Below, in pieces: positions 20,614 through 32,537 of a stretch of DNA of 64,000 nucleotides; the first letter of the stretch is position 1; each line of letters starts with the position of its first letter. A model generated the notes under the pieces. It worked only from the letters and a program-made list of their open reading frames with translations, did no database searches and had not been told where the DNA came from. Source of the DNA: Deinococcales bacterium (GTDB taxonomy: Bacteria > Deinococcota > Deinococci > Deinococcales > JAAFIG01). The stretch lies in contig JAYWGM010000066.1 in assembly GCA_043778225.1 (NCBI GenBank), positions 1 to 64,000 of the forward strand, in the 5' to 3' direction. Position numbers and translations under genes: made by a program.

Positions 20614-20642
20614 TTGACAAATCTTTTAAAACGTTTTAATTT
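20614..20642 (+). promoter_or_regulatory. Promoter with LacI-type operator
   Basis: TTGACA 20614, TAATTT 20637; perfect 14-bp palindrome TTAAAACGTTTTAA (20626-20639) with the central CG typical of LacI operators. Confidence 0.75.
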
Positions 20643-20672
20643 TATACCAAGCAAAATAAATCCGAGGTTTTT

Positions 20673-21710
20673 ATGAACAAGCTCTTACTCGAGCTTCCGA
20701 AAATCATCACCATTCATGATGTCGCTCTGGCAGCCCAAGTTTCGATTGCCACGGTTTCTTTGGCTTTACGCAACGATTCGCGCTGTGCGGCTAAAACAGT
20801 CACTCGAGTTCAAGAAATCGCGGCTCAGTTAAATTATGTGCCTAATCAGGTGGCTCGGAGTCTGCAAAGTTCGACCACCGAAACGATTACGCTGGTTGTG
20901 CCAGACATTGGTAATCCAGTTTATGTTGCCATGGCAAAGGTGATTCAACGCGAGGCTCGAGCGCGTGGTTTCAGGCTGGGTTTGGTCAACAGCGACCACC
21001 AGCGCAGCGAGGAACTCTATGCCATCAATGGCTTAGCCATGCGTCATGCCGATGCTTTGATTATTTGTTCACTCAATCCAGATGCAGTGCTGATTGAAGC
21101 TCTATCTCGAGCCAATGCCCCAGTGTGTTTTATTGGACGTTTACCAGCTAACATCGAGATTGACAATGTGCGGGTGGATTCTGAAATCGGTGTGGTTTTG
21201 GGGATGAATCAATTGGTAGAAGCGGGTCATCAGCGCATTGGTTTTGTCAATGGTATTGCCAAAACAGTTCCAGCTAAAGCGCGGCTTGAGGGGTTTAAGC
21301 GAGCCTTAAAACAACATCATTTGCCTTATTCGGCTTCGTTAGTGGTGCATCACGATTTTAGTTTTGAAGGTGGCTATGCGGGGACAAGGCAGTTACTCGA
21401 GCGCCATAGCAATTTAGATGCGATTTTTTGTGCCAATGATGTCATGGCAATTGGGGCGTTGCATCGTTTGCGCGAAGTGGGTTTACGAGTCCCGCAGGAC
21501 TTGGCGATTATTGGCATGGATAACATTGCCGAAGGTCGGGTTTGTACCCCAACGCTAACCAGTGTTTCGTTAGAAGCTGAAGAACGCGGTGCAATTGCAG
21601 CACAATTGTTATTTGAAAGACTCCAAGCTGAAACTCGGCTCGAGACACGGCGAGTAACAGTTCAACCGCGTTTGGTTGTGCGCCAGTCGAGTCTGCGGGT
21701 GGTCGCATGA
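20673..21710 (+). CDS. LacI-family transcriptional regulator
   Basis: TIHDVALAAQVSIATVS, LNYVPN, AIFCANDVMAIG, PTLTSV. Confidence 0.95.
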   Translation: MNKLLLELPKIITIHDVALAAQVSIATVSLALRNDSRCAAKTVTRVQEIAAQLNYVPNQVARSLQSSTTETITLVVPDIGNPVYVAMAKVIQREARARGFRLGLVNSDHQRSEELYAINGLAMRHADALIICSLNPDAVLIEALSRANAPVCFIGRLPANIEIDNVRVDSEIGVVLGMNQLVEAGHQRIGFVNGIAKTVPAKARLEGFKRALKQHHLPYSASLVVHHDFSFEGGYAGTRQLLERHSNLDAIFCANDVMAIGALHRLREVGLRVPQDLAIIGMDNIAEGRVCTPTLTSVSLEAEERGAIAAQLLFERLQAETRLETRRVTVQPRLVVRQSSLRVVA

Positions 21711-22597
21711 CGCGCCGTTCAGGGATGCAAAGCCCCGGTCATGTGCCTTTGTGGTTGTTTTTACCAACCCTGATTCCAGTGTTTTTACTCAGTGTTTTAC
21801 CGCTCTTTCAGGGTATTTGGCTTGGTTTTACCGATTACACACTTGGCGCTCCTGAACAACGTTTTATTTTCTTTGATAACTTCTCGAGGATGTTCAAAGA
21901 TTCGCAGTTCTGGGGTTCTTTTCAAGTTGGTGCAATCTGGACTTTTTCGGTCACTGCTGGTGTGGTTGTCTCGGGCATGGGTTTGGCGTTGTTACTTAAT
22001 GCCAAGTTGCCACTCCAAGGCTTGGCTCGAGTTCTGGTGCTTATTCCGTGGGCAATTCCACCGATTATCAAAGGCGTGATTTGGCGGCTGGTTTATCATC
22101 CTCAAGCTGGTTTTTTGAACAATGGCTTGGTTAGTGCTGGGGTTTTATCCGAACCGATAGATTGGCTCAATAGTTTTACCTGGTCTCTGCCCGCCGTGAT
22201 TCTGGTCGGTATTTGGACGGGTTTACCGCAAGCCACCGTGGTTTTACTGGCGGGTTTACAAACCATTCCAGATGAACTCTACGAAGCTGCTGCTTTGGAT
22301 GGTGCTTCGAGTTGGGCATTGTTTCGCTTTATAACTTTTCCGTTGTTGCTGCCTGTGATTATGGCAACCACGGCGCTCGAGTTTATGTGGCAATTTAATT
22401 CATTTGGACTGGTCTATACCCTAACCGAAGGTGGACCGGCTGGAACGACACGTTTACCGATGTTATTTGCTTACGAAGAAGCCTTTCGTTTTGGCAATCT
22501 GGCTTATGCCTCGGCACTTGGAACGGCGATGGTGATTGTGGTCGGCGCATTGGTGCTTTATACCGTGCGAGGACAAATTGCACAGGAGCGCTCATGA
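21707..22597 (+). CDS. Carbohydrate ABC transporter permease
   Basis: EAA loop LYEAAALDGAS, GGP motif, multiple TM helices. Confidence 0.93.
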   Translation: MTRRSGMQSPGHVPLWLFLPTLIPVFLLSVLPLFQGIWLGFTDYTLGAPEQRFIFFDNFSRMFKDSQFWGSFQVGAIWTFSVTAGVVVSGMGLALLLNAKLPLQGLARVLVLIPWAIPPIIKGVIWRLVYHPQAGFLNNGLVSAGVLSEPIDWLNSFTWSLPAVILVGIWTGLPQATVVLLAGLQTIPDELYEAAALDGASSWALFRFITFPLLLPVIMATTALEFMWQFNSFGLVYTLTEGGPAGTTRLPMLFAYEEAFRFGNLAYASALGTAMVIVVGALVLYTVRGQIAQERS

Positions 22598-23442
22598 CCG
22601 TTAAACAACGCCGCCTTAAATTGCAAGCTGTCCGTTTATTGATGGGTCTGGCTTTACTGGGTTATGTGTTGTTTTTAGCGTTTCCCTTGGTGTGGTTACT
22701 GGCAACGGCTTTCAAGCCAACTTCGGAAATTTTTACGACGGGCGAATTCTTACCTCGAGCGCCAACAATTGCTAATTTCGGCGAAGCCATCCGCGACCTT
22801 GGTGTGCTGAACAGCGCTTGGAACACATTTTTTGTGAGTATTACCTCGGCTATTATTACCTTAGCTATTTCAATGCCAATTTCGTATATGTTGGCACGTC
22901 GCTCGAGTGCCTTGAACCGTGCGGTGATGGTTTGGATTCTGGTCTCGCAGACTTTTCCGTTAATCCTGATTATCGTGCCGTTGTTCCTGATTTTAGCCCG
23001 CTTTGGTTTGGTCAATTCACACTTGGGTTTAATCATTGTTTATGTTGTCTGGAGCTTACCTTTTGTACTCTGGATGCTTCAGGGTTACATCAAAAGTATT
23101 CCAGTTGAACTCGAGGAAGCGGCTACGGTGGATGGTGCAACTCAACTTCAGGTAATTCGCTTTATTTTGCTACCACTGGTTATTCCCGGATTGGTCGCCA
23201 CTGGGCTGTACGCCTTTATTACTTCGTGGAACGAATTTTTCTTTGCTTTGGTGCTGCTCAAAAGCCCCGAACTGATGACCATTCAAGTCAATCTTTCACG
23301 GCTTCGTGGTCTCGAGGGACTGGCACGCTGGGGTCCGTTGGCGGCTGGCAGTGTGCTGGCGACGCTACCCACCTTAATTCTTTTTGCCTATATGCAGCGC
23401 CGTTTGGTTTCGGGAATGCTGGCAGGAGGTGTAAAAACTTGA
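22594..23442 (+). CDS. Carbohydrate ABC transporter permease
   Basis: IPVELEEAATVDGA, WNEFFFAL. Confidence 0.93.
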   Translation: MTVKQRRLKLQAVRLLMGLALLGYVLFLAFPLVWLLATAFKPTSEIFTTGEFLPRAPTIANFGEAIRDLGVLNSAWNTFFVSITSAIITLAISMPISYMLARRSSALNRAVMVWILVSQTFPLILIIVPLFLILARFGLVNSHLGLIIVYVVWSLPFVLWMLQGYIKSIPVELEEAATVDGATQLQVIRFILLPLVIPGLVATGLYAFITSWNEFFFALVLLKSPELMTIQVNLSRLRGLEGLARWGPLAAGSVLATLPTLILFAYMQRRLVSGMLAGGVKT

Positions 23443-31477: not shown

Positions 31478-31517
31478 ATGTATTTGATAGCCATAACCAA
31501 AAGGAAGCGGATACGTC

Positions 31518-32447
31518 GTGATTACTTTTATTGGTAGCCTGAACATGGACATCAGCACTCGAGTACACCACTTGCCAGCCCTTGGCGAAACGGTACTTGG
31601 GGGCGAAGCAACCATTGGGTTAGGCGGAAAAGGTGTAAACCAAGCAGTTGCAGCCGCGCTACTGCTACAACCAAACGAGCCTCCAGTTCGACTCATAGCC
31701 AGTCTGGGCAGTGATTCTTTTGGAAATACTGCTCGAGAACAATTAAGCCAATATCACCTGAATCTCGAGCAACTTCATTGCAGCCCCAGACCAACAGGAA
31801 TTGCCCTGATAAGCGTAGACAGCAATGCCCAAAACCATATTGTTGTCGCACCAGGAGCAAACGCCGACCTTGAACCACAACACGTCAGCCCAGAAAATTT
31901 GCACAACTCGAGATTGGTCTGTATTTCACTCGAGATTCCAAAAGCAACATGGCAAAAAGCCATTCGTTCTGCTCGGCAAATCGGCGCAATGGTGGTGGTC
32001 AATGCCTCACCTTTGGATAAGGTAACGCCCGAAGATTTATGTGGAACAGACGTTTTGGTGGTCAATCAAATTGAAGCGATACAACTGAGTGGTCTGGCAA
32101 ATCTAACCGACCTTGATCTTGCTAAACACTTACAAAAAATTGCACCAAAAGTCGTGGTCACGCTTGGCGCTCGAGGTGCAGTCTGGGTAGGAGACAACGA
32201 AGGTTACGCACCTGCCTACACGATACAAGCGCTTGATACGACTGGCGCAGGAGATACATTTTGCGGAGCGCTGTGTGTCGAACTTGCCCAAGGTGCAAAT
32301 CTAGGTTCTGCGGTGCAGACTGCCAACGTTGCTGGAGCAATCTGTGCCACACGGCATGGCACAGTCGCAGCCATGCCTACTCGAGCCGAAGTAAACCTTG
32401 TACTGCTGCGAAATCTTGAGTCAAGTTCTCAAGAAAGCAAGTTCTGA
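31518..32447 (+). CDS. Ribokinase (PfkB family)
   Basis: GSLNMD, GGKGVNQAVA, N..E, DTTGAGDTF. Confidence 0.9.
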   Translation: MITFIGSLNMDISTRVHHLPALGETVLGGEATIGLGGKGVNQAVAAALLLQPNEPPVRLIASLGSDSFGNTAREQLSQYHLNLEQLHCSPRPTGIALISVDSNAQNHIVVAPGANADLEPQHVSPENLHNSRLVCISLEIPKATWQKAIRSARQIGAMVVVNASPLDKVTPEDLCGTDVLVVNQIEAIQLSGLANLTDLDLAKHLQKIAPKVVVTLGARGAVWVGDNEGYAPAYTIQALDTTGAGDTFCGALCVELAQGANLGSAVQTANVAGAICATRHGTVAAMPTRAEVNLVLLRNLESSSQESKF

Positions 32448-32499
32448 ACTTCCTACAACTCAATTTGTACTGCATTAGAGCTTAAATTAGAGGCTCGAG

Positions 32500-32537
32500 A
32501 AAAAACTTGTGTTGCACAAAGATAGCACAAGTTTTTT
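32500..32537. terminator. Terminator ending the ARH operon
   Basis: AAAAAACTTGTG...CACAAGTTTTTT inverted repeat with A/T tails. Confidence 0.7.

Follow-up and report, generated by a model that had tools for sequence, protein, structure and literature searches.

An operon in a Deinococcales bacterium (assembly GCA_043778225.1, 4.03 Mb) is described here from a 64-kb window, positions 1 to 64,000 of contig JAYWGM010000066.1. Ten open reading frames (ORFs), all on the + strand, span positions 20673-32447 and are separated, in order, by -4, -4, 42, 107, -4, -1, -4, -4 and 40 nucleotides. Pfam matches above cut-off identify a LacI-type regulator, two BPD_transp_1 permeases, an SBP_bac_1 solute-binding protein (SBP), three PF03747 proteins of the ADP-ribosylhydrolase (ARH) superfamily, here termed ARH_A, ARH_B and ARH_C, an HpcH_HpaI/CitE lyase, a CoA_transf_3 CoA-transferase and a PfkB kinase. 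An earlier sequence-only reading had placed ten co-oriented, mostly overlapping genes between an operator and a terminator, and the ORF coordinates, a palindrome and a hairpin bear this out. The operon is real, widely conserved and undescribed in the literature searched, which lacked most subscription journals and held no description of such a pathway. It would serve to scavenge a ribosylated acid of the citrate type. Its features are as follows.

20614-20642, + strand: candidate promoter, TTGACA (20614-20619), 17 nucleotides and a weak -10 element TAATTT (read from sequence)
20626-20639, no strand assigned: LacI-type operator, a palindrome that overlaps the spacer and the -10 element of the promoter (sequence and genome search)
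20673-21710, + strand: LacI-family repressor (Pfam; best NCBIfam match RbsR, below cut-off)
21707-22597, + strand: CUT1 ABC permease 1, MalF-like (Pfam/NCBIfam)
22594-23442, + strand: CUT1 ABC permease 2, MalG-like (Pfam/NCBIfam)
23485-24792, + strand: SBP, oligosaccharide type (PF01547)
24813-24851, + strand: stem-loop 3' of the SBP gene (-21.0 kcal/mol)
24900-26039, + strand: ARH_A, 379 residues (PF03747)
26036-27310, + strand: ARH_B, 424 residues (PF03747)
27310-28161, + strand: CitE-family acyl-CoA C-C lyase (PF03328; 8KHL, E = 1.5e-34)
28158-29336, + strand: class III (CaiB) CoA-transferase (PF02515, E = 1.8e-112)
29333-31477, + strand: ARH_C, 714 residues, with an ARH domain (about 1-350), a beta-rich middle and a CBM66-like C-terminal domain (PF03747, model)
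31518-32447, + strand: ribokinase-like PfkB kinase (TIGR02152)
32500-32537, + strand: terminator-like hairpin with A and U tracts (-15.5 kcal/mol)
11611-12672, + strand, outside the operon: MsiK/UgpC-type ABC ATPase (the genome's best match to the ATPase of the Ensifer copy)

The operator is a perfect 14-bp palindrome and the sole site with one mismatch or fewer in the whole genome. A related core, AA(A/T)CG(A/T)TT, lies 5' of 40 of the 41 cognate lacI genes (best match by script, judged by eye, without a shuffle control). The candidate -10 element matches the consensus at three of six positions; a scan for consensus promoters and terminators gave no excess over shuffled sequences, and neither the promoter at 20614 nor the hairpin at 32500 was listed in it. 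The stem-loop behind the SBP gene is a possible mRNA stabiliser.

All the features of a CUT1 sugar operon are present, namely an SBP_bac_1 protein, two permeases, a LacI regulator with its operator and an orphan MsiK-type ATPase. The nearest solved relative of the SBP is the arabino-oligosaccharide-binding protein 6RJY (E = 1e-19). The ABC importer of the sequence-only reading was thus found as regards its permeases and SBP, but none of the ten operon genes encodes an ABC ATPase; the ATPase at 11611-12672, which is 54% identical to one within the Ensifer copy of the operon, probably energises the importer. For the kinase, TIGR02152 (RbsK) was by far the best family, at 243.9 bits against a cut-off of 299.65, and CitE and CaiB likewise fall under their NCBIfam equivalog cut-offs. 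A second set of LacI, SBP and permease genes at 49363-56778 (- strand), with a second PfkB kinase 37% identical to that of the operon, is possibly another ribose-related locus.

The all-helical ARH fold was checked on models of ARH_A and ARH_C. Against 1t5j, ARH_A (predicted local distance difference test, pLDDT, 86.7) gave Z 30.4 and a root-mean-square deviation (rmsd) of 2.9 over 282 aligned residues, and ARH_C (pLDDT 91.6) gave Z 25.6 and rmsd 2.9 over 295. The C-terminal domain of ARH_C matched the CBM66 structure 4b1m (Z 22.0, rmsd 2.3, 156 aligned); CBM66 domains bind fructofuranose ends, and the modelled domain arrangement would be a glycosidase-like layout. Acidic residues are invariant within each subfamily: D20, T70-D71-D72, D308 and D310 in ARH_A, with E27 nearly so; E101, D158-D160, D367 and D369 in ARH_B; and E31, D61-D63, D286 and D288 in ARH_C. 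With PF03747 above cut-off and the binuclear metal ligands (Glu flap, TDD, DxD) kept, all three belong to the ARH superfamily. The earlier claim of acidic metal motifs in all three therefore holds for these ligands, but the Asp of the GDALG motif is missing from ARH_B (GCLLG) and ARH_C (GVYLG), both of which end in DxDC.

ARHs select alpha-1'' linkages and hold the cis 2'',3''-hydroxyls of the distal ribose at the metal centre, and Tyr212 of DraG stacks against adenine (PMC7050489; statements taken from this and the other papers cited refer to the passages covered). A tyrosine equivalent to Tyr212, placed 31 residues before the first Asp of DxD from spacing and alignment, occurs in seven of eight canonical controls and in none of 31 A, B and C sequences. 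The D(I/V)G loop, which we take to hold the Asp97 motif of the DraG-type adenine-binding loop, is replaced in A, B and C, as is the GNG motif (NCG, IGA). ARH_A scored 39.9 of 337 bits against the DraG model TIGR02662 and 41.2 of 490 against Tri1, failing as an equivalog, and neither ARH_B nor ARH_C matched either model. Judged by these sequence features, the three are probably not ADP-ribose enzymes. SCO2028 and SCO2030 of Streptomyces coelicolor did not cleave U-alpha-ADP-ribose (PMC13036486), which is weak but concordant evidence. Basic residues of ARH_A (K/R64, R122, K/R128 and R142) are retained in its closer divergent members.

In a FastTree phylogeny of 54 sequences, ARH_A, ARH_B, ARH_C and two subfamilies of other genomes, ARH_D and ARH_E, were each monophyletic (support 0.92-1.0), with B sister to C and D sister to E. 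The metal motifs of ARH_E are degraded, and the protein is almost always found with ARH_D (for example L052:8823-9935), of which it is a probable pseudo-enzyme partner. A 'hypothetical' protein of Deinococcus aetherius (L093:10691-11803), with no Pfam match and without catalytic motifs, clusters near ARH_B/C (support 0.87).

The active-site motifs of the operon's CitE (DLED, Arg, Glu and Asp) are conserved, as is D175 of CaiB, presumably the catalytic Asp, and CaiB is a class III CoA-transferase. In other genomes the acid module of the cassette is exchanged, so that three unrelated versions exist: CaiB with CitE, as in the window, CitF with a CitE-CitD fusion, and the citramalate lyase CmlAB. 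Locus L052 shares 51-70% identity with the window in LacI, importer, ARH_A and ARH_B; its CitF scored 638.8 against a citrate lyase alpha-subunit cut-off of 501.45 and stands with the CitE-CitD fusion. In L217 an AtuA plus DUF4387 module matches citramalate lyase CmlA 9ERQ (E = 4e-137). All three versions would split an acid of the citrate or citramalate type by a retro-aldol reaction, and their occurrence in the same cassette points to an acid of the citrate type. None of the ten operon genes encodes a hydratase (Pfam), so the hydroxy acid must be supplied as such, as would be expected if its hydroxyl bore the sugar.

The exact acid is not readable from the CitE residues, and there are several divergent subtypes: the CitEs of the clusters form four or more groups that share about 27-44% identity with one another. 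The operon's own CitE scored 196.5 of 443.4 bits as citrate lyase CitE, and CitF and CitD were not found in the window, so that the operon is not a CitDEF system and CitF passes in the relative L052 only. It is not an itaconate system of the RipABC/Ict-Ich-Ccl kind either, with 152.4 of 375 bits against RipC and no MaoC-type hydratase among the ten genes. A further idea, turnover of the phosphoribosyl-dephospho-CoA prosthetic group, was given up, as the CaiB version lacks an acyl carrier and an importer is present.

A genome scan with ARH_A gave at least 594 confirmed relatives among the 600 matches listed, and the best 80 loci were analysed. The closest named relatives among the matches listed are in Deinococcota (Trueperaceae, Meiothermus and Calidithermus), with a genome of the Firmicutes and numerous Actinomycetota next in line. 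Besides Deinococcota, the cassette is present in Actinomycetota, Firmicutes and rhizobia, and the joint conservation anticipated by the sequence-only reading was thus found in four phyla. In the best 80 loci, some of which lie on short contigs, ARH_B was found 74 times, CaiB 71, CitE 71, RbsK 53, LacI 41 and SBP 37. The range is patchy: evenly spread samples gave 16 of 301 genomes in the bacterium's own phylum, nine of 301 around a Kribbella genome (Actinomycetota) and four of 401, two of them distant, around the Firmicutes genome. All eight new ARH_A loci from the even 301-genome sample of Actinomycetota carry four ARHs, CaiB and CitE. The order in the Ensifer copy is LacI-ABC-ARH-ARH-ATPase-CaiB-CitE. 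Streptomyces loci often have no adjacent importer; the five tested all keep an SBP orthologue (57-62%) and both permeases elsewhere in the genome. Beside this detached importer (L233-L237) an APH-family kinase gene adjoins in four of the five, and a family-1 glycosyltransferase follows in two. A 1.2-Mb Planktophila genome also carries the cassette, as do similar low-GC metagenome contigs; in this group (L006 and L111-L147, GC 0.43-0.48) the ARH set is A-D-E or A-B with the FGE-fusion protein described below, and several loci have CaiB-CitE.

The presence of a lyase follows that of ARH_A. A lyase was found in 112 of the 120 scorable loci with ARH_A; eight well-flanked loci lacked it, three of which retain CaiB, and a further 56 were truncated. 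Loci with ARH_B or ARH_C and no ARH_A, a hand-picked set (plasmid matches, relatives and 20 regions), had a lyase in none of 14 well-flanked cases, with seven truncated. The tally left out 17 loci (the window itself, duplicates and short flanks), and the distant A-like ARHs of L218, L219 and L224 (30-34%), which have other neighbours, lie outside it. One of these, L224:8001-9095 in Halalkalicoccus, is near a tripartite tricarboxylate transporter. In the absence of ARH_A, the B and C enzymes adjoin ribokinases, nucleoside hydrolases, nucleoside-type transporters, glycoside hydrolases or DeoC. The simplest reading of this difference is that ARH_A recognises the acid and that ARH_B and ARH_C are general ribosidases.

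The ARHs accompanying ARH_A vary. In the 112 loci with ARH_A and a lyase the partners were B+D+E (48), B with the FGE-fusion protein (35), D+E (6), B+D+E with the FGE-fusion protein (5), B+C (5), C (4) and others (9); the window is of type A+B+C. ARH_A is the constant member, though it was the query for most loci. It stands alone in L210 and L222, and with C only, without B, in L216, L095 and L217. Gene content in these five loci and in L047 speaks against an obligate A-B heteromer. With B/C-type enzymes also occurring without A, the earlier suggestion that the ARHs are heteromeric is not favoured and an obligate ARH heteromer is unlikely; the ARH_D-ARH_E pair of other genomes is a better candidate for one than A-B-C. 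One ARH per linkage fails as a strict rule, the loci carrying one to four ARHs.

The FGE-fusion protein (L007:13300-15288), of 660 residues with an unassigned N-terminal part and a C-terminal FGE-sulfatase domain, is a frequent cassette member, present in 24 of the first 80 loci and found mostly where D/E and C are absent, and is a candidate for a further glycosidase. An Atlas search with its N-terminal part returned unnamed clusters only (0.93-0.94), and weak glycoside-hydrolase leads below 0.9. A PF00756 esterase lies in or beside the cassette in L206, L212, L213, L214, L217, L026 and L001, which may reflect an ester in the substrate or a lactone to be opened. In Kribbella loci L019, L044, L049, L064, L069 and L074 two genes on the opposite strand separate ARH_A from ARH_B, and encode a PhoD-like phosphatase and a galactose-binding-domain protein (two examples scanned).

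The sequence-only reading had proposed a scavenging route in which released ribose passes to the ribokinase and the acid to the CoA-transferase and lyase, and the conservation of the gene set supports it. That proposal is refined here by a citrate-type acid, a named candidate substrate and different roles for ARH_A and ARH_B/C. The candidate is ribocitrin, in which three bonds, two between riboses and one between ribose and acid, would be alpha. It is a tri-riboside of (S)-homocitric acid, has been tentatively detected in freshwater Streptomyces, and its biosynthesis is given as not established in the passages covered (PMC12381216, PMC13136089). The fit is fourfold: alpha-ribosides suit ARH chemistry, three riboses match three ARHs and an oligosaccharide importer, homocitrate suits a citrate-type lyase, and its S configuration suits lyases of the CitE type.

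The route we infer would begin with a conjugate of one to three alpha-D-ribofuranoses on (S)-homocitrate, taken up by the CUT1 importer with a shared ATPase. ARH_B and ARH_C, as alpha-ribofuranosidases, would trim the ribose-ribose bonds, and ARH_A would cut the final ribose-acid bond and free the acid. Ribose would be converted by the ribokinase to ribose-5-phosphate, CaiB would form (S)-homocitryl-CoA, and CitE would cleave this to acetyl-CoA and 2-oxoglutarate. By family names and Cahn-Ingold-Prelog reasoning, the S form shares the geometry of (3S)-citryl-, (S)-citramalyl- and L-malyl-CoA, and fits CitE-type lyases. The ordinary homocitrate of nitrogenase is R (PMC9968304) and would therefore not serve as an S-type substrate; a literature search for homocitrate lyase or catabolism brought up nitrogenase papers only. 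That the substrate is a ribosyl citrate-type acid of some kind is likely. A LacI-repressed catabolic operon for ribocitrin-type molecules, with homocitrate as the acid, is held at slightly under even confidence. More tentative again is the full assignment, with A, B and C (and D/E elsewhere) as metal-dependent alpha-ribofuranosidases and a complete ribocitrin catabolism that includes an (S)-homocitryl-CoA lyase.

Several points weigh against ribocitrin. Among 40 SBP sequences not one basic residue reaches 90% conservation, which is unexpected for a binder of tricarboxylates, and the matches to CitF and CmlA are as compatible with citrate or citramalate as with homocitrate. L210, L216, L222 and L095 hold only one or two ARHs, so that congeners with fewer riboses or enzymes of wider range would be required there, and neither CaiB nor CitE lies near ARH_A in five well-flanked loci (L006, L011, L061, L222 and L223). 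The counts are not independent, the loci being mostly from related actinomycetes and the numbers inflated by kinship; the loci without ARH_A were chosen by hand; and the Tyr212 position was mapped by spacing and alignment. The cassette in the small Planktophila genome and low-GC contigs suggests an abundant or common substrate, possibly not ribocitrin. In the passages covered ribocitrin is reported only from Streptomyces (PMC12381216, PMC13136089), and other natural alpha-ribosides exist, such as fungal stilbene alpha-ribosides (PMC13637821).

In a first rival the chemistry stays and the acid changes: the substrate would be an undescribed riboside, or its 1-O-acyl, acetylated or phosphorylated form, whose acid is (S)-citramalate, citrate or another tertiary hydroxy acid of this kind and perhaps varies between lineages. 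The citramalate lyase homologue of L217, the above-cut-off citrate lyase alpha subunit of L052, the division of the CitEs into groups, and the PF00756 esterases and PhoD phosphatase that recur in some loci all speak for it. Against it, aerobes with a tricarboxylic acid cycle have no need of a dedicated lyase for citrate; no citramalate or citrate riboside was described in the literature searched, whereas ribocitrin exists; and the orthology of SBP, operator and ARH_A in most loci suggests a single class of ligand. Another acid is thus a serious possibility, although not the favoured one.

It is improbable that the ARHs act instead on ADP-ribose-derived material (ADP-ribosylated small molecules or peptides, or poly(ADP-ribose) fragments such as ribosyl-adenosines) and that the CoA module handles a co-occurring acid. 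All characterised ARHs work on ADP-ribosides (PMC7050489), the branch points of poly(ADP-ribose) hold a tri-riboside core with alpha linkages (PMC8319183), and B-type ARHs adjoin nucleoside transporters and hydrolases in other genomes. Adenine-binding features are nevertheless absent from A, B and C, Pfam finds neither Nudix nor phosphatase nor nucleoside-salvage genes among the ten of the operon, and this reading would leave unexplained why citrate-type lyases of three kinds go with ARH_A.

That the cluster makes or recycles ribocitrin, with CitE and CaiB synthesising (S)-homocitrate and some of the ARHs transferring ribose, is very unlikely. The aldol reaction of CitE is reversible, and many Streptomyces enzyme blocks have no adjacent importer or repressor; no biosynthesis of ribocitrin is established in the passages covered (PMC12381216, PMC13136089). 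Against this, the operon contains no enzyme for a ribosyl donor, a repressor, importer and ribokinase accompany the block here and in most loci outside Streptomyces, and the Streptomyces importer is kept elsewhere in the genome. Hardly credible is the notion that the ARHs are signalling protein de-ADP-ribosylases lying by chance in a sugar operon, as their family annotation and the listing of Streptomyces ARHs as DraG-like (PMC5087735, PMC9411070) might imply, given that in several phyla their translation is coupled to that of importer, kinase and lyase, the lack of an ADP-ribosyltransferase in the window operon, the carbohydrate-binding domain of ARH_C and the loss of DraG motifs.

Read as a ribocitrin-type catabolic system, the operon resembles a LacI/CUT1 glycoside-utilisation operon in which ARH-fold enzymes replace the glycosidases and a Rip/Cit-like tail is added. 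With the ARH/DraG hydrolases (DraG, human ARH1, ARH3, Tri1 and MJ1187; PF03747) the operon ARHs share the fold (Z 25-30), the TDD/DxD ligands and the glutamate of the Glu flap, and they would be expected to cleave alpha-ribosyl bonds. They differ in the tyrosine, loop and motif changes given above, in the carbohydrate-binding domains of ARH_C and in their catabolic context. Four tandem, uncharacterised ARHs of S. coelicolor, SCO2028-SCO2031, are described as putative DraG homologues, with no operon function proposed in the passages covered (PMC5087735, PMC9411070). They match the D-E-A-B block of Streptomyces loci, would be orthologous to it, and probably belong to the same system. Putative ARH genes also stand beside a transporter, a sugar kinase and a sugar-type regulator in the ribose/sugar loci Rus of Bacteroidetes (bioRxiv 10.1101/574913) and yegTUV of E. 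coli (PMC10819704); in the passages covered their ARH substrates are undefined, no CoA-transferase or lyase is reported, and uptake is by SusCD or MFS in place of a CUT1 ABC importer. In common with the itaconate/citramalate modules RipABC and Ict-Ich-Ccl, citrate lyase CitDEF and citramalate lyase CmlAB, the operon would activate an S-series hydroxy acid with CoA and then split it by a retro-aldol reaction into acetyl(-CoA) and a 2-oxo acid. It differs from them in having no hydratase (Ich/RipB), in its coupling to glycoside hydrolysis and in scoring below the equivalog cut-offs.

Among 8000 scored candidates 7394 matched ARH_C at E 1e-20 or better, a group annotated as protein ADP-ribosylhydrolases, and for this very large group of orphan enzymes ribocitrin is a named and obtainable test compound. 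If the ribocitrin reading is true, the ARH fold would gain a defined glycosidase activity, a catabolic route that cleaves homocitrate would be known for the first time, and ribocitrin, a natural product of 1981 without known genes, would have a role. Four of the eight S. coelicolor ARHs would be re-read as metabolic rather than signalling enzymes, which would explain the orphans SCO2028-2031, and ribocitrin-type ribosides would prove to be a widespread carbon currency, so far overlooked, among bacteria of soil and fresh water.

Upstream of the operon lie a Cas2-like (VapD-type) ORF with a weak Pfam match (16529-16987) and a PIN-domain gene (18201-18979), which is preceded by a small ORF, AbrB-like by eye; these genes are toxin-antitoxin-like.

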